Source: a virus
Lineage: Duplodnaviria > Heunggongvirae > Uroviricota > Caudoviricetes
Virus record (IMG/VR): IMGVR_UViG_2541047798_000005
DNA length: 53,426 nucleotides
Reading direction: 5' to 3' (one strand)
Part shown: positions 7,137 to 28,366 of the stretch, in pieces
Layout of the letters: each line of letters opens with the position of its first letter
Numbering within the stretch: the first letter of the stretch is position 1
Position numbers and translations under genes: made by a program
Notes under the pieces: generated by a model
Told to the model about the DNA's origin: nothing
The model's database searches: none
Seen by the model: the letters and a program-made list of their open reading frames with translations, nothing else

Positions 7137-7238
7137 TTATGGATTGATTAGCAGGTACAGACCGCCGAACAAGGCGACGTTAACAGCGATTGCCGCAGCG
7201 ATGGCAAAAGCCAGGGCGAAAACGTGTTTACCGTCCAT
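7137..7238 (-). CDS. Small hydrophobic peptide (33 aa)
   Basis: ATG with GAGAGG RBS; MDGKHVFALAFAIAAAIAVNVALFGGLYLLINP. Confidence 0.35.
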   Translation of the reverse strand: MDGKHVFALAFAIAAAIAVNVALFGGLYLLINP

Positions 7239-11918: not shown

Positions 11919-12157
11919 TGAGGTTTCAAATCATGATCGAAAAAAAAGATGTTGATAAAGAGCTGCCTGACTCATCTGATGACTATGTCACTTTTAACGG
12001 CGGCCTGTATGAGTTCGAAACGTCTGCCGGGTGGCACGATAAATGGCCTATGCCAACGCGCAAGGAATTAAGCGAACGTAAAACATTTGGCGAAGATGCC
12101 GAACGCCTGGCCAATAACAAATGGCTTGATAAGTTCATTGCGGAGGCTGATAAATGA
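11918..12157 (+). CDS. Hypothetical protein
   Basis: 79 aa; start coupled to upstream stop (TAATG). Confidence 0.4.
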   Translation: MRFQIMIEKKDVDKELPDSSDDYVTFNGGLYEFETSAGWHDKWPMPTRKELSERKTFGEDAERLANNKWLDKFIAEADK

Positions 12158-12273
12158 GCATGGTAAAAATTGCGGCATTAGCCGCCGCCTTCGTTATTGG
12201 GGTGATTTATATCACAGCTTCTTTTTATGTCGCCGTTTTTATTGCTGAATTAATTGTTGCATTGTTGGGGTGA
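12154..12273 (+). CDS. Small hydrophobic membrane peptide (39 aa)
   Basis: ATGA overlap with upstream stop; MSMVKIAALAAAFVIGVIYITASFYVAVFIAELIVALLG. Confidence 0.4.
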   Translation: MSMVKIAALAAAFVIGVIYITASFYVAVFIAELIVALLG

Positions 12274-12276
12274 GTT

Positions 12277-12396
12277 ATGAAGGTTTGCAAGAATATTGTA
12301 AGGGTCGCTTTTTGCGTTATTTGTTTCCTGTTTACGATTGTGTTTTGCGGCGCACTTGCTGCGGTGATTAGCTTTATTTGTAAAGGGGCGATGTGA
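12277..12396 (+). CDS. Small hydrophobic Cys-rich membrane peptide (39 aa)
   Basis: MKVCKNIVRVAFCVICFLFTIVFCGALAAVISFICKGAM; stop overlaps next start. Confidence 0.4.
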   Translation: MKVCKNIVRVAFCVICFLFTIVFCGALAAVISFICKGAM

Positions 12397-14121: not shown

Positions 14122-14219
14122 TTATGGACGACACATTGTTTTATATGTGCTGTTGCTGGGGTTTTATTGCCTTATGTCTGTTTATCAGGTGGTTTATTGA
14201 ATACCATATGAGGTGAGGC

Positions 14220-25041: not shown

Positions 25042-25242
25042 ATGTTCGACAGAATACGGGAGGCGTGTGCATATGTGACTGGTGCAGTAACCGCTTTTTT
25101 CGGTGCTATAACCATCAATGACGTTGCAGTGTTCGTTGGTATCTTATCAACCATAGGCACATTTGCCGTTAACTATTACTTCAAATCACAGGAGAACAAA
25201 AGGGCGCAAGAGGAACACGACGCACGAATGGGGAATAAGTAA
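25042..25242 (+). CDS. Holin (class II / pinholin-like)
   Basis: 66 aa from ATG at 25042 (GGAGG RBS); two TM segments and charged C-terminus, resembling phage 21 S21. Confidence 0.7.
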   Translation: MFDRIREACAYVTGAVTAFFGAITINDVAVFVGILSTIGTFAVNYYFKSQENKRAQEEHDARMGNK

Positions 25243-25734
25243 ATGATTAGCCAATCGCTGAAAAACAAGATTGTTGCGGCGGCGGCTGGTGGGGCGATCG
25301 CTATTGCGGCGGTGATGATTAAGCCATTAGAGGGCGTTGAGTACGATCCGTATCGTGATGTTGTCGGTGTATGGACTGTTTGCCACGGTCACACCGGAAA
25401 AGACATCATGCTTGGCAAGACTTACACGCAATCGGAATGCGATGCTTTGTTAAATAAAGATCTACACAAAACCGCAAAAGCGATTGACCCATATATCAAA
25501 GTCGAAATATCAGATTTTACCCGCGCTGCACTTTATTCATTCGCCTATAACGTAGGCGCAACCAACTTCAAAACATCAACCTTATTAAAACTACTCAATG
25601 ACGGCAAGAAATCAGAGGCGTGCGCACAGCTTAAACGCTGGGTATACGCTGGCGGTAAGAAGTGGCAAGGGTTAGTTAACCGCCGCGATGTTGAATATGC
25701 CGTTTGCGAATGGGGTGAAACATGGACAAGGTGA
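25243..25734 (+). CDS. SAR endolysin (GH24 lysozyme with N-terminal signal-anchor-release segment)
   Basis: 163 aa; hydrophobic Gly/Ala-rich N-terminus followed by lysozyme catalytic region (E...D...T). Confidence 0.8.
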
Positions 25735-26192
25735 AGACGTTAATCATCGCCGTTGTTGTTTGCATTATTGCCGGGCTTGCTGCCGTAACGTGCTATTACC
25801 AGGGTGAAACGGCAAGGTTGCAGGAAGAAGTCACGGTGACGAAAGGCGCACTGAAAACAGCAAGTAACACTATTCAGCAGATGAAGGAGCGAAACGCAGA
25901 ACTGTCAAAACTTGATAAGAGGTATCACGATGAAATTAAAGCTATCAGATCTGACATTGCCGATCTGCGCACTGGCATTGATAACGGCACTATCAGGCTG
26001 CGCGTCAACGCAATACCCGTGCGAGTGTCCGACTCCGCCGAATCCGCCAGCCGCATTGATGGAGCCTCCTGTAGACTCACTCCCGACGCTGAATCGGCTT
26101 ATCTATCCCTCAGAGAACAACTAAAAACGAAAGACGCTCAGATTACTGGTCTTCAGGACTACATCAAAACTCAGTGCTTACGCAAAGAATAA
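25722..26192 (+). CDS. Rz: i-spanin (Rz)
   Basis: 156 aa; N-terminal TM, coiled-coil periplasmic domain; overlaps endolysin end. Confidence 0.8.
25930..26124 (+). CDS. Rz1: o-spanin (Rz1) lipoprotein embedded in Rz in the +1 frame
   Basis: 64 aa from ATG at 25930 (AGAGG RBS); lipobox LSGC; proline-rich mature region. Confidence 0.8.
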   Translation: MKLKLSDLTLPICALALITALSGCASTQYPCECPTPPNPPAALMEPPVDSLPTLNRLIYPSENN

Positions 26193-26470
26193 CAGCGCGT
26201 GGACGTGTCGCCGTTTCTGCCAGCCAGCCATAACCGGGCCAATCCTTCCCGCGAGCGACGGCGGAAATTCAAAAACACGTAATACCGGATCAACAGTCCC
26301 ATTAACAGGTCAGGCGCTACCTGGGTAGAAGAAAGCGCCACCCACCTATTTTATAAAATTCTGAAAACGGTACTCATGCAGCGCCGTTTTTAGTGTTTTA
26401 TAGCTGTTTTCACTCCCTGCGGTGTCGAGTTTTGCGGGGGTTATATTTTTCAGAATAGGAGATTATTCTG

Positions 26471-27013
26471 ATGGCTAAGGCTAAAGGCATTAAGTTGCCT
26501 CACTTCAAGATCCCGCTTTTTGAGCATACCACTGTTTTCTTTTGCCCGACCCGCGAGATGTTCTATGAATTTTGCGAAAAGGCAGGAATTCCGATTGAAC
26601 CTGATTTCGAGTTGGCTGGAGGATTAACGCTTACTTGCACTGGCGAGAATGGTGGTAACTTCTACGTGATCGCAGTATTCAACAATGAGTTGGGAACGCT
26701 GGTCCATGAATGCGCCCACACTACATTCCACGTTTTAAGTGATGTAGGCGTCGTGGCTACCACGGTTCCTACCCATCCGGCGAATGAGACTTACGCTTAC
26801 ATGGTAGACCGTATCTTCGATGCGTTTTTCCCTATCATAGCAGAATCAAACGAAGCACAGGTTGCAGCAATGCAGGCGGCAGAAGTCGTCGATCAGGCGC
26901 TGGAACAGGCAGAACAGCCGAAGGAAGAGGAAAAACCCGCGAAGAAAGGCAAACGTAAGCCCAAAGCAAAAGAAGCGTATGTGCCGCGCGTAATGAGCTT
27001 TAAACGAGGCTGA
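26471..27013 (+). CDS. Hypothetical protein with HExxH-like motif and Lys-rich C-terminal tail
   Basis: 180 aa; LVHECAHTTFH; C-terminus QPKEEEKPAKKGKRKPKAKE; AGGAG RBS. Confidence 0.5.
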   Translation: MAKAKGIKLPHFKIPLFEHTTVFFCPTREMFYEFCEKAGIPIEPDFELAGGLTLTCTGENGGNFYVIAVFNNELGTLVHECAHTTFHVLSDVGVVATTVPTHPANETYAYMVDRIFDAFFPIIAESNEAQVAAMQAAEVVDQALEQAEQPKEEEKPAKKGKRKPKAKEAYVPRVMSFKRG

Positions 27014-27015
27014 TT

Positions 27016-27105
27016 ATGATTGCGTCAATATTAACGTTTATGGGTGGCGTGGCGTTCGGGTTCATTATTTGCCTGTTTATGGTGATTATGTCTATGCGAG
27101 GCTGA
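27016..27105 (+). CDS. Tiny hydrophobic peptide 1 (29 aa)
   Basis: MIASILTFMGGVAFGFIICLFMVIMSMRG; own RBS (GAGGCTGATTATG, repeated at the next ORF). Confidence 0.4.
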   Translation: MIASILTFMGGVAFGFIICLFMVIMSMRG

Positions 27106-27107
27106 TT

Positions 27108-27203
27108 ATGGACGCTTACATCATCGCCGGATTAATTGGTATTTCTGTATTTCTGGTGAGTTTTGTTATTGCCGTACTGATAACCGTAAAAAGCAAGTAT
27201 TAG
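27108..27203 (+). CDS. Tiny hydrophobic peptide 2 (31 aa)
   Basis: MDAYIIAGLIGISVFLVSFVIAVLITVKSKY; same RBS-start motif as peptide 1. Confidence 0.4.
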   Translation: MDAYIIAGLIGISVFLVSFVIAVLITVKSKY

Positions 27204-27216
27204 ATGGGGTGGCAAG

Positions 27217-27291
27217 ATGATTGACCCGCTAATTATCCTTTCTGCCTGCGTCGCTGTATGGCTGGCGATCATGATATTCATTGAAAGCTGA
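27217..27291 (+). CDS. Tiny hydrophobic peptide 3 (24 aa)
   Basis: MIDPLIILSACVAVWLAIMIFIES. Confidence 0.35.
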   Translation: MIDPLIILSACVAVWLAIMIFIES

Positions 27292-27302
27292 AGGTATCCA
27301 CA

Positions 27303-27383
27303 ATGAACGCATACGAAATGCTATTGCTGGTGGCTGTAGTTGTGGTTATTGCTGTGGACGTATACCGGGAGATGAAAAAATGA
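27303..27383 (+). CDS. Tiny hydrophobic peptide 4 (26 aa)
   Basis: MNAYEMLLLVAVVVVIAVDVYREMKK; AAGG RBS. Confidence 0.35.
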   Translation: MNAYEMLLLVAVVVVIAVDVYREMKK

Positions 27384-27448
27384 AATGGCTTGATTTCTTT
27401 TTCCTGATCGTTGCGATTGTTTTTACCATGATCGCGTTAACTCAATAG
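27380..27448 (+). CDS. Tiny hydrophobic peptide 5 (22 aa)
   Basis: MKWLDFFFLIVAIVFTMIALTQ; ATGA overlap with peptide 4. Confidence 0.35.
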   Translation: MKWLDFFFLIVAIVFTMIALTQ

Positions 27449-27456
27449 GTGAACGC

Positions 27457-27531
27457 ATGAATGCTATTGATATTATGTTGATCGTGTGTACCGTTGCGTT
27501 AATTATTATTGGGGTGATTATCAATGTCTGA
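27457..27531 (+). CDS. Tiny hydrophobic peptide 6 (24 aa)
   Basis: MNAIDIMLIVCTVALIIIGVIINV; AGGTG RBS. Confidence 0.35.
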   Translation: MNAIDIMLIVCTVALIIIGVIINV

Positions 27532-27592
27532 TGGTGATTTCTTAATCATGGCTATATGCACGCTGTTAACTGTTATTGTTTTCTTCGCGTAA
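27524..27592 (+). CDS. Tiny hydrophobic peptide 7 (22 aa)
   Basis: MSDGDFLIMAICTLLTVIVFFA; overlaps peptide 6 by 8 nt. Confidence 0.3.
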   Translation: MSDGDFLIMAICTLLTVIVFFA

Positions 27593-27601
27593 AGGTAAAC
27601 A

Positions 27602-27685
27602 ATGAAAGAATTATTCGATTGGTTGGAAGTATTAACATACTGTGCAAGTTTTGTTGCTTGCGTATATATCATCAATAAATATTAA
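27602..27685 (+). CDS. Tiny hydrophobic peptide 8 (27 aa)
   Basis: MKELFDWLEVLTYCASFVACVYIINKY; AAAGG RBS. Confidence 0.35.
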   Translation: MKELFDWLEVLTYCASFVACVYIINKY

Positions 27686-27696
27686 AAGGTGACGTT

Positions 27697-27840
27697 ATGA
27701 ACGATGAAGAACTAAAAATAGCAGATGAAATAAGAAAGGCACTTGATTCAGCAGAAAATAATGAAACCATCTATCTTTCCGAACAGGAAGTAGAAAAGAT
27801 GATGAATGAATTTAAATTAAGATTTGGAAAAGATAATTAA
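27697..27840 (+). CDS. Small hydrophilic protein (47 aa)
   Basis: AAGGTG RBS; MNDEELKIADEIRKALDSAENNETIYLSEQEVEKMMNEFKLRFGKDN. Confidence 0.35.
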   Translation: MNDEELKIADEIRKALDSAENNETIYLSEQEVEKMMNEFKLRFGKDN

Positions 27841-27850
27841 GAGGTGAATT

Positions 27851-28366
27851 ATGGCCCGCACGAAAAAGGCAAAGGCTGACGATAAAAAGCCGGAAGCCAA
27901 AAAGGTGGGCCGTCCGCATGGCTATACCGAAGAAAAGGCATTAGAGATCTGTGAGCTGGTGGCGGACGGTCAGAGTATTAACAAAATCTCGAAGATGCCT
28001 GGTATGCCGAACCGTTCAACAATCCTCAAATGGTTCCGTGATGTACCGGAGTTTTCCACCATGTACGCACGCGCGAAGGAGATCGGATTTGAGGTGTTGG
28101 CTGATGAGATTATCGATATAGCCGACGCAGCGGAGAACACTGACAAAGATCAATGCCGCCGTCATCAACTGATGATTGAAACTCGCAAGTGGTTACTGGC
28201 AAAACTGCAACCGCGTAAATACGGCGAACGCGTCACACAGGAGATCGTCGGTAACAAGGAAGAAGCACCCGTCCAGGTAGAAGTAAATCAGACTACTGTC
28301 CTTGAGATAATCGATAACCTGAATAAGGAGTACAATACTCATGGAGACTGCGACGACAAAGATTGA
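27851..28366 (+). CDS. Terminase small subunit
   Basis: 171 aa; basic N-terminus, HTH-like region, position immediately upstream of the large terminase gene; GAGGTG RBS. Confidence 0.7.
   Translation: MARTKKAKADDKKPEAKKVGRPHGYTEEKALEICELVADGQSINKISKMPGMPNRSTILKWFRDVPEFSTMYARAKEIGFEVLADEIIDIADAAENTDKDQCRRHQLMIETRKWLLAKLQPRKYGERVTQEIVGNKEEAPVQVEVNQTTVLEIIDNLNKEYNTHGDCDDKD

Follow-up and report, generated by a model that had tools for sequence, protein, structure and literature searches.

The DNA analysed here (the window; 53,426 nt, IMG/VR record IMGVR_UViG_2541047798_000005) belongs to a temperate coliphage of the mEpimmI (mEp021-like) group, which is not lambdoid, the affiliation assumed in the original prediction. 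Its plus strand carries a run of eight mini-ORFs of 22–31 aa (m1 to m8, 27016–27685), and since all eight show one hydrophobic stretch (Kyte-Doolittle mean over 15 residues of 2.2–3.4), the number of single-TM ORFs in the predicted array is eight rather than seven. A GGAG-, GAGG- or GGTG-type (Shine-Dalgarno-like, SD) motif lies 5' of every start codon, in agreement with the expectation that each ORF has its own ribosome binding site (RBS), and the overlaps that had been described, by ATGA and by 8 nt, occur at m4/m5 and m6/m7, respectively. The identical RBS-start string noted at the first two ORFs is also present, and at its full length is a 14 nt repeat that flanks m1 on both sides and comprises the SD, the stop codon of the preceding gene and the start codon of the following gene. 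The hydrophilic 47 aa ORF reported to follow the array was likewise recovered (m9). Features of the locus are given in Table 1.

Table 1. Features of the peptide gene array and its surroundings, with positions in the window. Peptide families are named by letter; counts of loci refer to the 55 loci compared in the text.
Feature	Position	Strand	Description
Holin gene	25042–25242		Two TM domains
Terminator-like hairpin with T-run	26364–26391	+	From folding; between spanin gene and p180 gene
Terminator-like hairpin with T-run	26413–26450	+	From folding; between spanin gene and p180 gene
p180 gene	26471–27013	+	180 aa; stop codon 2 nt before m1
Junction repeat, copy 1	27005–27018	+	14 nt, CGAGGCTGATTATG; left flank of m1
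m1 (family K1)	27016–27105	+	29 aa, MIASILTFMGGVAFGFIICLFMVIMSMRG; single TM helix; GGxxxG invariant; pN/pS 0.31
Junction repeat, copy 2	27097–27110	+	14 nt, CGAGGCTGATTATG; right flank of m1
m2 (family J)	27108–27203	+	31 aa, MDAYIIAGLIGISVFLVSFVIAVLITVKSKY; N-terminus acidic, C-terminus basic; pN/pS 0.22
m3 (family A)	27217–27291	+	24 aa, MIDPLIILSACVAVWLAIMIFIES; in 50 of 55 loci; pN/pS 0.27
m4 (family B)	27303–27383	+	26 aa, MNAYEMLLLVAVVVVIAVDVYREMKK; in 53 of 55 loci; pN/pS 0.28
m5 (family C1)	27380–27448	+	22 aa, MKWLDFFFLIVAIVFTMIALTQ; in 51 of 55 loci; pN/pS 0.12
m6 (family D)	27457–27531	+	24 aa, MNAIDIMLIVCTVALIIIGVIINV; pN/pS 0.38
m7 (family E)	27524–27592	+	22 aa, MSDGDFLIMAICTLLTVIVFFA; pN/pS 0.26
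m8 (family F)	27602–27685	+	27 aa, MKELFDWLEVLTYCASFVACVYIINKY; in 51 of 55 loci; pN/pS 0.08, the tightest constraint of the families
m9	27697–27840	+	47 aa, hydrophilic, not a membrane peptide; rare accessory insert, in 6 of 55 loci
TerS gene	27851–28366	+	Small terminase subunit, Sf6_terminase type; Pfam PF20901 on a homologue

Upstream of the array is a complete set of lysis genes, encoding a holin with two TM domains, a SAR-type endolysin, Rz and Rz1. The array had been placed between the lysis cassette and the terminase, and this order is correct, except that on the lysis side the gene for a 180 aa protein (p180) intervenes. The lysis cassette is about 0.8 kb away, and the interval contains two hairpins and the p180 gene as well as non-coding sequence that is conserved as a block. 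The hairpins set the array-bearing unit apart from the lysis genes, and terminators have been annotated at the equivalent place in mEp021 (TERM_6) and mEp013 (T11). The p180 gene is always found directly upstream of the array; in its product the residues H79-E80-x-x-H83 and E106 are invariant and are accompanied by a lysine-rich, low-complexity tail, and the protein is probably a small zincin-like metallopeptidase. At the other end, the start codon of TerS is 10 nt past the last ORF of the chain. Spacing between consecutive genes from p180 to TerS is −8 to +13 nt, each SD lies inside or just past the preceding gene, and this spacing is conserved, an arrangement that points to translational coupling of the chain from p180 through TerS. 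Promoter-like sites were not detected on the plus strand between 25410 and 28600, and the six on the minus strand compare with 7.0 ± 2.9 expected, so neither strand is enriched for them. The array stretch itself is T-rich and of low GC content, and it sits in the packaging/late part of the genome, downstream of the terminator-like hairpins. A search of its neighborhood for transporter or modification-enzyme genes found none.

Within the window, counting both strands, there are 14 ORFs of 20–50 aa that combine an SD, an ATG start and a TM-like stretch, and eight of these fall in the 670 nt of the array. When this 670 nt stretch was shuffled 2000 times, the mean number of such ORFs was 0.07 and the maximum two, which excludes a chance origin. 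All 15 families tested are under frame-specific purifying selection, with in-frame pN/pS values of 0.08–0.38 compared to 0.6–3.3 in shifted frames, and TerS, used as a control, gave 0.19. Peptides A and F remain 100% identical in a phage with a p180 protein that is just 59% identical. The eight mini-genes of the stretch genuinely code for protein and are selected at the amino acid level, as expected if the predicted genes for single-helix membrane peptides are real. Poorly conserved, non-coding sequence in relatives, which the original prediction had named as evidence against itself, is not what was found.

Comparison was extended to 55 loci, which besides that of the window came from seven phages in GenBank and 47 contigs in IMG/VR. 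All 55 have an array at the same place, between the conserved HExxH protein (p180) and the small terminase, and the array described above represents, for this phage, a locus kept in every mEpimmI temperate coliphage examined. The copy-number comparison that had been suggested revealed 3–12 cassettes per locus, drawn from about 20 peptide families of 20–47 residues, and 43 different architectures, while the canonical order of the cassettes is violated in none. In mEp021 five cassettes occupy about 470 bp, and mEp010 has ten. Family E (m7) is always accompanied by family D. Some phages carry cassettes that have decayed by loss of the start codon, frameshift or 5' truncation, and individual members must therefore be dispensable. 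Cassettes are gained, lost and sometimes decayed, and the gene boundaries at which this happens are similar to each other. The possibility that frameshifting joins the mini-ORFs into one multi-pass protein was also considered and rejected, each having its own SD, ATG and stop codon; free presence or absence of cassettes would scramble any fixed multi-pass topology, and the idea was dropped.

A blastn search with 27100–27850 against 50,697 phage records returned seven mEp-group phages and nothing else, the DNA pattern of peptide A matched only mEpimmI contigs in IMG/VR, and a profile search for more distant p180 loci gave the same 47 contigs again. No p180 was found in a scan of genome contigs, and in a Providencia prophage with a large terminase of 65% identity, ordinary genes and no array are found upstream of terS.

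The array had been described as a diversifying paralog family, and this holds for some of its members. Against shuffled sequences, significant similarity was detected between B and G2 (z = 11), among C1, C2 and C3 (6.5–8.9), between K2 and K2b (6) and between G and G2 (5), but not between families A, F, K1 or J and any other family (mean z over 171 pairs, 1.3). Parts of the array would accordingly appear, from these similarities, to be diverged tandem paralogues. An acidic residue (D/E) occurs among the first five residues in 16 of the 19 families, and the C-termini are mostly neutral or basic. In 13 of 14 families, a test for a single conserved helical face, based on the helical moment of variability, did not reach significance, so that a specific interface between helices is not directly indicated.

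One cassette has a wider distribution. K1 (m1) is also found, at 93–95% DNA identity, in the strictly lytic rV5-like phages, where in rV5 and FV3 it is intact and solitary, lies in an unannotated 95 nt gap, and retains the invariant GGxxxG. It is flanked there by the same type of stop-start junction as m1, and the locus has no p180 gene and no visible lysis gene nearby. Judging from this sequence identity, K1 appears to have moved, junctions included, between the mEpimmI group and these unrelated lytic phages; the sharing of gene and junctions suggests gene transfer at a scale of less than 100 nt, and transfer of genes as small as this would escape standard annotation.

Database searches contributed little to the assignment of function. 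With ten proteins of the locus, Pfam, PHROGs and PADLOC gave nothing usable for the peptides and no toxin, holin or defence family, the nearest being a near-match of K1 to phrog_6302 (E = 0.001), a family without an assigned function. NCBIfam, searched with p180, m9 and TerS alone, gave no usable match, and m9 also had none in Pfam or PHROGs. Rfam reported no family at E ≤ 1 between 26000 and 28600 except for a spurious stem-loop outside the array, and a HMMER search with peptide J against 1.84 billion cluster representatives recovered four close relatives and no distant family. RefSeq annotation across the array stretch amounts to no more than two or three hypothetical proteins. The text searched of the paper defining the mEpimmI group does not mention the array, and no paper searched describes about 20 families sharing one phage locus in an array of fixed order but variable cassette content.

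The reading that we favor, and consider reasonably probable, is that the peptides are autonomous, single-pass inner-membrane microproteins, probably of the lytic phase, that act within the membrane. Given their position in the packaging/late unit past the hairpins, the genes would be expressed during lytic growth, and from hydropathy and charge the products are predicted to insert into the inner membrane. The predicted orientation is N-out, C-in, because the N-terminus is mostly acidic and the C-terminus neutral or basic, as in the Pf3 coat protein. Since the peptides are too short for soluble domains, the cassettes are individually dispensable and K1 occurs alone elsewhere, we infer that each peptide acts by itself, possibly through helix-helix contacts in the bilayer, either with another copy of the peptide or with a membrane protein of the host or the phage. 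As a set of varying composition, they would tune the condition of the host inner membrane in late infection. Of the functions suggested at the outset, membrane modulation remains the best general reading. A more specific version, tentative and rather unlikely, would have the array supply a modular battery of inhibitors that work inside the membrane, with every peptide binding the TM domain of its own host inner-membrane protein in lytic growth. Possible targets would include abortive-infection effectors and quality-control or insertion machinery, both membrane-embedded, and the entry routes of rival phages. Cassettes would then be traded, even between phages as unrelated as the rV5-like ones, as minimal units consisting of a 70–90 nt ORF with self-similar SD-stop-start junctions that could be plugged into any operon. 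If true, such a battery would add a new class to the known phage counter-measures and a new, minimal form to the known mobile genes.

Several other explanations were weighed against the favored one. The peptides may be helpers of the lysis clock which, accumulating late in the inner membrane, perturb the proton-motive force or bind the two-TMD holin and so advance or delay its triggering, the number of cassettes tuning lysis time. This accords with an array about 0.8 kb past a complete holin/SAR-endolysin/spanin cassette, probably expressed simultaneously with it, with products that are small and wholly membrane-embedded, and with the tandem holin-like membrane protein genes found beside the lysis genes of Gordonia and mycobacterial phages (PMC9671378, PMC13056207). 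Those phages resemble the mEpimmI group in that consecutive membrane protein genes near the lysis genes vary among relatives, but their tandem holin-like proteins have 79–180 aa, 1–4 TM helices and charged tails, and number about four at most beside the endolysin (PMC9671378), whereas the array encodes up to 12 peptides of 22–31 aa, lies past a terminator and a full set of holin, endolysin and spanin genes, and shows coupling to the terminase rather than to the holin. The peptides also lack the features of holins and antiholins, being outside the lysis cassette, mostly tailless and not of the typical build of ~60–220 aa with TMDs and a charged cytoplasmic tail (they are 3–6 times smaller than the known examples), and no holin family was matched. 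With the non-coding block, two hairpins and p180 in between, and K1 remote from visible lysis genes in the rV5-like phages, a role in lysis timing is unlikely, if still worth keeping in view. Superinfection exclusion or defence, by which the peptides would stop the DNA entry or development of competitors at the inner membrane, a variable battery facing variable competitors, is distinctly unlikely. Many exclusion proteins, such as T4 Imm, P22 SieA and HK97 gp15, are small inner-membrane proteins. The presence or absence of cassettes is highly polymorphic, as at conflict loci (43 architectures in 55 loci), and the p180 homologue of P22 adjoins sieA. Nevertheless, no promoter-like site for expression in a lysogen was found, there was no PADLOC match, and for the mEpimmI group experiments have attributed exclusion to the repressor and to Lpp lipoproteins (PMC11893012). 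The array also lies past the hairpins and ahead of the terminase genes, and K1 is kept in strictly lytic phages, so that exclusion, one of the functions first proposed, is weakened as far as lysogens are concerned and survives as a rival.

It is very improbable that the peptides are precursors from which the HExxH peptidase p180 matures a processed or secreted product resembling a bacteriocin, PSM or RiPP. In PSM-alpha and leaderless bacteriocin operons, genes for tiny peptides follow one another in tandem with separate RBSs, and the array recalls these, with the gene for a putative metallopeptidase always immediately upstream and apparently in translational coupling. Against this, the peptides have neither a leader nor a conserved cleavage motif, their cores are uniformly hydrophobic instead of amphipathic and their N-termini acidic, no transporter or modification enzyme is encoded nearby, the p180 homologues of P22-like phages have no peptide genes alongside, and the K1 locus of rV5-like phages has no p180 gene. 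Membrane toxins of a type I toxin-antitoxin kind, repressed by antisense RNA and stabilising the prophage, were part of the original prediction and can hardly be upheld. The peptides are similar in size and hydrophobicity to Ibs, ShoB, TisB and Ldr (under about 60 aa, with one TM helix), very small hydrophobic peptides are encoded by tandem genes in ibs/sib and ldr/rdl (PMC2887945), and prophage-borne systems exist (PMC12648545). However, type I units are individually equipped with a promoter and an antisense RNA, and gaps of −8 to +13 nt are too tight for separate promoters, long 5' UTRs and antisense genes; the minus-strand promoter-like sites are at chance level, no antitoxin RNA (Rfam) or toxin family such as Hok, Ldr, Ibs, TisB, ShoB or Zor (Pfam, PHROGs) was matched, and K1 is present in lytic phages as well. 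Equally hard to credit is the view that the peptides are irrelevant, the ORF chain serving as a spacer or a relay of translation by which the level of TerS is fixed, or being T-rich DNA open by accident. While the tight coupling from p180 to TerS would suit a relay, and T-rich, low-GC DNA alone yields hydrophobic ORFs (a general point in PMC11188072), amino acid selection comparable to that on TerS in all 15 families, the retention of identical peptides across diverged phages and the rarity of such ORFs in shuffled sequence all argue against it. Chains of 3–12 links are all tolerated, so the length of a relay is not the conserved property.

For the favored reading of single-helix membrane microproteins, precedents come from small bacterial regulators of larger membrane proteins (AcrZ, MgrB, MgtS, PmrR, KdpF and CydX), and viral and artificial examples of single helices include the 44 aa E5 protein of BPV and the ‘traptamers’. 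Regulators of the AcrZ type have, like the array peptides, 20–50 residues, one TM helix and almost no soluble part, with any action of the array peptides likewise expected to run through contacts within the bilayer, and by this analogy may provide the best guide to how the array peptides work. They differ in being single genes with their own regulation, as opposed to 3–12 cassettes that share a late phage operon and are coupled in translation, and have no sequence relationship to the array peptides. Classical phage ‘morons’, as described by Hendrix and colleagues, carry their own promoter and terminator. The array cassettes resemble them as variable accessory inserts among core genes that move between unrelated phages (compare K1), but have only an SD-stop-start junction, without a promoter or terminator of their own, and depend on the host operon. 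A catalogue of phage small genes is reportedly available from Fremin et al. (2022), and such catalogues share with the array unannotated small ORFs recognised by their conservation. Small membrane proteins have been reviewed (PMC12648545). The intergenic microproteins of Enterobacteriaceae, which are under purifying selection, are also unannotated (15–70 codons), mostly hydrophobic and known by conservation, but that survey treats one family at a time, and prophages and tandem arrays are not mentioned in the text searched (PMC11188072).

No part of phage and bacterial genomes is less well annotated than the tiny membrane proteins. Phages of the mEpimmI group occur commonly in the human gut, can be grown on E. 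coli K-12 and are represented by isolates in hand, and because these phages offer about 20 peptide families in 43 natural combinations, the locus provides a ready system for the roles of single-helix microproteins in infection and for the birth, duplication and movement of minimal genes. The fixed order of the cassettes and their tight coupling would also be compatible with the chain helping to set the translation of TerS.

Analysis of ORFs of at least 20 aa between positions 26400 and 28500 revealed an unbroken plus-strand chain that leads from p180, a putative zincin-like protein, through nine small ORFs (m1-m9) to the terminase genes. Since all eight ORFs from m1 to m8 contain a hydrophobic stretch sufficient to cross the membrane once as a helix (15-residue Kyte-Doolittle means of 2.2–3.4), the single-TM array described in the original prediction is retained, with eight members instead of seven. 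A GGAG/GAGG/GGTG-type motif lies 5–12 nt upstream of every mini-ORF start. The overlaps reported previously (ATGA at m4/m5 and 8 nt at m6/m7) were confirmed, as was the string common to the starts of m1 and m2, which measures 14 nt (CGAGGCTGATTATG; 27005-27018 and 27097-27110). Both strands of the 53-kb window contain 14 ORFs of this type, eight of them within the array stretch, whereas 2000 shuffles of that stretch gave a mean of 0.07 and a maximum of two, so the array is not a product of chance. Other SD-preceded mini-ORFs with a hydrophobic helix (30–39 aa) are found at 14124-14216 (+), at 7137-7238 (-), and as a neighbouring pair of 39 aa each at 12154-12273 and 12277-12396 (+).

Features of the array region and p180 homologues in P22-like phages (window coordinates unless a locus is named)
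Feature	Coordinates	Strand	Description
Class II holin	25042-25242		Upstream lysis cassette
Endolysin	25243-25734		Upstream lysis cassette; hydrophobic N-terminus
Rz	25722-26192		Upstream lysis cassette; embedded lipoprotein ORF
Hairpins with T-runs	26364-26391, 26413-26450		Terminator-like; 3' of non-coding block
p180	26471-27013	+	180-aa ORF
m1	27016-27105	+	29 aa
m2	27108-27203	+	31 aa
m3	27217-27291	+	24 aa
m4	27303-27383	+	26 aa
m5	27380-27448	+	22 aa
m6	27457-27531	+	24 aa
m7	27524-27592	+	22 aa
m8	27602-27685	+	27 aa
m9	27697-27840	+	47 aa, hydrophilic
Small terminase (TerS)	27851-28366	+	Followed by large terminase
ST64T gp49	L151 2501-2890		p180 homologue between Rz and terS
HK620 hkcC and P22 unannotated ORF adjoining sieA	L152/L153 2501-2866		p180 homologues

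The GenBank records nearest to the window are MagusPhagus, mEp010, mEp044, mEp554, mEp013, mEp021 and mEp515, which make up the mEpimmI group of Nus-dependent, non-lambdoid, temperate coliphages that are frequent in human faeces and for which the status of a new family has been proposed (PMC11893012); the earlier description of the phage as lambdoid is therefore wrong. In the text of that publication that was searched, no small genes, transmembrane genes or genes close to the terminase are described. A related prophage occurs in 34 of 5426 complete E. coli genomes, and RefSeq annotation under the array stretch consists of two or three hypothetical proteins at most.

The region was compared across 55 loci (the window, seven GenBank phages and 47 IMG/VR contigs) anchored on p180 and TerS, which are separated by 322–1307 bp. 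In every one of them this interval is filled with mini-ORFs of the same kind, and clustering gave about 20 peptide families, the window carrying, in this order, K1-J-A-B-C1-D-E-F (m1-m8) followed by the hydrophilic ORF. In-frame pN/pS, calculated for the 15 families that had sufficient members, was 0.08–0.38, compared to 0.6–3.3 in the two shifted frames and 0.19 for the small terminase in its own frame, with variable sites mostly at third codon positions. Purifying selection thus acts on the amino acid sequences of the peptides with a strength similar to that seen for a core gene. One contig, whose p180 shares only 59% identity with that of the window, encodes A and F peptides that match those of the window at 100% identity. 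These comparisons mark the mini-ORFs as real genes, not the poorly conserved non-coding sequence named as a possibility with the original prediction. Frame-specific selection also contradicts the idea that the chain is a mere translational relay or a run of chance ORFs, an explanation made scarcely credible by the fact that chains of anywhere from 3 to 12 links are tolerated.

The comparison of copy number that had been suggested earlier gave 3–12 membrane cassettes per array (median 9), in 43 distinct architectures among the 55 loci. One canonical order (K1, K2/K2b/K3/Q, J, P, G2, A, G/G3, H, B, C2, C1, D, E, C3, M, F and an optional 47-aa ORF) is violated by none of the arrays. Families B (53/55), C1 (51/55), F (51/55) and A (50/55) are near-universal, the remainder are accessory, and E is always accompanied by D. 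The spacing of adjacent genes is tight and constant for each junction (-8, -4, 2, 4, 5, 8, 10, 11 or 13 nt), and terS starts 10–11 nt after the last cassette ends, so that from p180 to TerS the genes form a chain, every one beginning at or beside the stop of the one before, a layout associated with translational coupling. Paralogy z-scores against composition-preserving shuffles were 11 for B and G2, 6.5–8.9 among C1, C2 and C3, 6 for K2 and K2b, and 5 for G and G2, with weaker relatedness of B to D, H and M. The paralog family originally envisaged is thus supported in part: several families are diverged paralogues, whereas A, F, K1 and J are not significantly related to the others. Since intergenic strings made of a stop plus SD recur (e.g., TAGGTGA, TGAAGGT) and the first codons of paralogues are alike (ATGAAY...TAYGA), they may provide short homologies for unequal recombination. 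Cassette decay by start codon loss, frameshift or 5' truncation is seen in individual phages, and the 322-bp array is the product of a deletion ending within cassette E. The overall picture is one of a birth-and-death family of accessory genes. The m9 ORF, located between the final membrane cassette and terS, is present in only six of the 55 loci; it matches no family and seems to be an accessory insert in its own right.

One cassette has a wider distribution. The m1 gene and its two junctions (27002-27110) have counterparts in more than 70 rV5-like (Vequintavirus) records, at DNA identities of mostly 93–95% (87–95% overall). In FV3 (L004 2006-2095) and rV5 (L059 406-495) the matching segment takes up a 95-nt gap that lies, without annotation, between annotated genes. 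It is an intact 29-codon ORF that differs from the window peptide at 2–3 residues and is bordered on either side by a stop-start junction of the same type; it is therefore a conserved gene absent from the annotation of these records. No further mini-ORFs were found near K1 in FV3 and rV5. Two K1 allele types occur within mEpimmI, that of the window being the one common with rV5, and GGxxxG is invariant across all copies. Judging by sequence, this 90-nt gene has moved between unrelated phages, one temperate and the other strictly lytic. Both retain it intact, which implies that the cassette can function without the array, p180 or lysogeny. Among the records that carry an rV5-type K1 segment are several GenBank entries named 'Campylobacter phage' (MG0656xx; C5, C15, A142 and others; 135–141 kb), which resemble rV5-like coliphage genomes and may reflect misnaming or contaminated samples.

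The p180 protein, a putative peptidase, has an HExxH...E motif and belongs to phrog_1365. Homologues are found at two sites in P22-like phages, the Rz-terS interval and the immI region, where they adjoin sieA; the corresponding ORF of P22-pbi is unannotated, and a promoter feature alone is listed there. Since the mini-ORF array is absent beside these homologues, and also from a Providencia prophage whose large terminase is related, it appears to be an mEpimmI speciality, independent of p180 and of terminase type.

The lysis cassette upstream of the array is standard. Its endolysin begins with a hydrophobic, Ala/Gly-rich segment, which suggests a signal-anchor-release (SAR) type enzyme, partnered by the small two-TMD holin. 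A non-coding block (about 26232-26340) lies in the interval from the spanin gene to p180. Its identity among 45 distinct relatives is at least 95%, which exceeds the conservation of the genes on its flanks, and terminators are annotated in mEp021 and mEp013 at the site corresponding to the hairpins. An Rfam search of the block (up to 26450) returned only a spurious stem-loop match (E = 0.26); the block may encode a regulatory RNA or contain a site that controls late transcription, such as a promoter or antitermination element. Between 25410 and 28600, no promoter-like site was found on the plus strand, and those on the minus strand were not above chance level. From their position, p180, the array and the terminase genes would be part of late (packaging/morphogenesis) transcription, read through the terminators.

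The peptides are almost wholly hydrophobic helix. D or E is found among the first five residues in 16 of 19 families and C-termini are mostly neutral or basic, so the positive-inside rule, and likeness to the Pf3 coat protein, a precedent for such a topology, predict inner-membrane insertion with N-out and C-in. As a peptide of 22–24 residues has no room for a soluble domain, any activity would lie inside the bilayer. Selection on the helix sequence, the presence of K1 alone in lytic phages and the dispensability of any single cassette suggest accessory functions in the lytic cycle that are autonomous, sequence-specific and dispensable. The reading that we consider most likely, with moderate confidence, is that the peptides are intramembrane modulators, which would associate with one another or with membrane proteins of host or phage, and would jointly form a variable battery shaping the inner membrane at a late stage of infection. 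No conserved helical face was detected in 13 of the 14 families analysed.

Helpers of the lysis clock would suit the neighbourhood and timing of the array, but the terminator, the coupling to terS and the rV5 context of K1 do not fit, and such a role is unlikely. Superinfection exclusion or defence is rather less plausible still: it matches the polymorphism of the array, but the lysogen would have to express the peptides, of which no sign was found, and K1 also resides in lytic phages. That the peptides are precursors processed by p180 is very improbable, given that leader and transporter are both absent and that other p180 homologues occur without peptide genes. The type I toxin-like activity proposed originally can practically be set aside, as the promoter and antisense-RNA layout that defines type I toxin-antitoxin systems is not present.

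No Pfam, PHROG or PADLOC model was matched by any peptide above threshold, and NCBIfam gave nothing for m9, p180 or TerS. A search of 1.84 billion cluster representatives yielded only four close relatives of peptide J, and the DNA pattern of peptide A is found in IMG/VR in mEpimmI contigs only. By mode of action, the closest analogues would be bacterial small membrane-protein regulators and the viral E5 protein (PMC12648545), while by position they are the tandem holin-like genes of actinobacteriophages, which encode 79–180 aa and number about four at most (PMC9671378). Selected hydrophobic microproteins are an already known phenomenon (PMC11188072). The literature searched contained no fixed-order, cassette-variable array of about 20 single-helix families (20–47 residues) chained translationally into a phage packaging operon. 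The observation of the array is solid and unusual, and the mEpimmI array is a system that is easy to work with experimentally.

Two relatives carry HNH endonuclease genes, both probably homing endonucleases, at different points of the region. In mEp013 (L007 2092-2577) the gene takes the place of the 3' part of p180, and in a metagenomic contig (L056 2752-3273) it sits between the endolysin and Rz genes. The same contig has an intein match on a gene overlapping the end of the portal gene.
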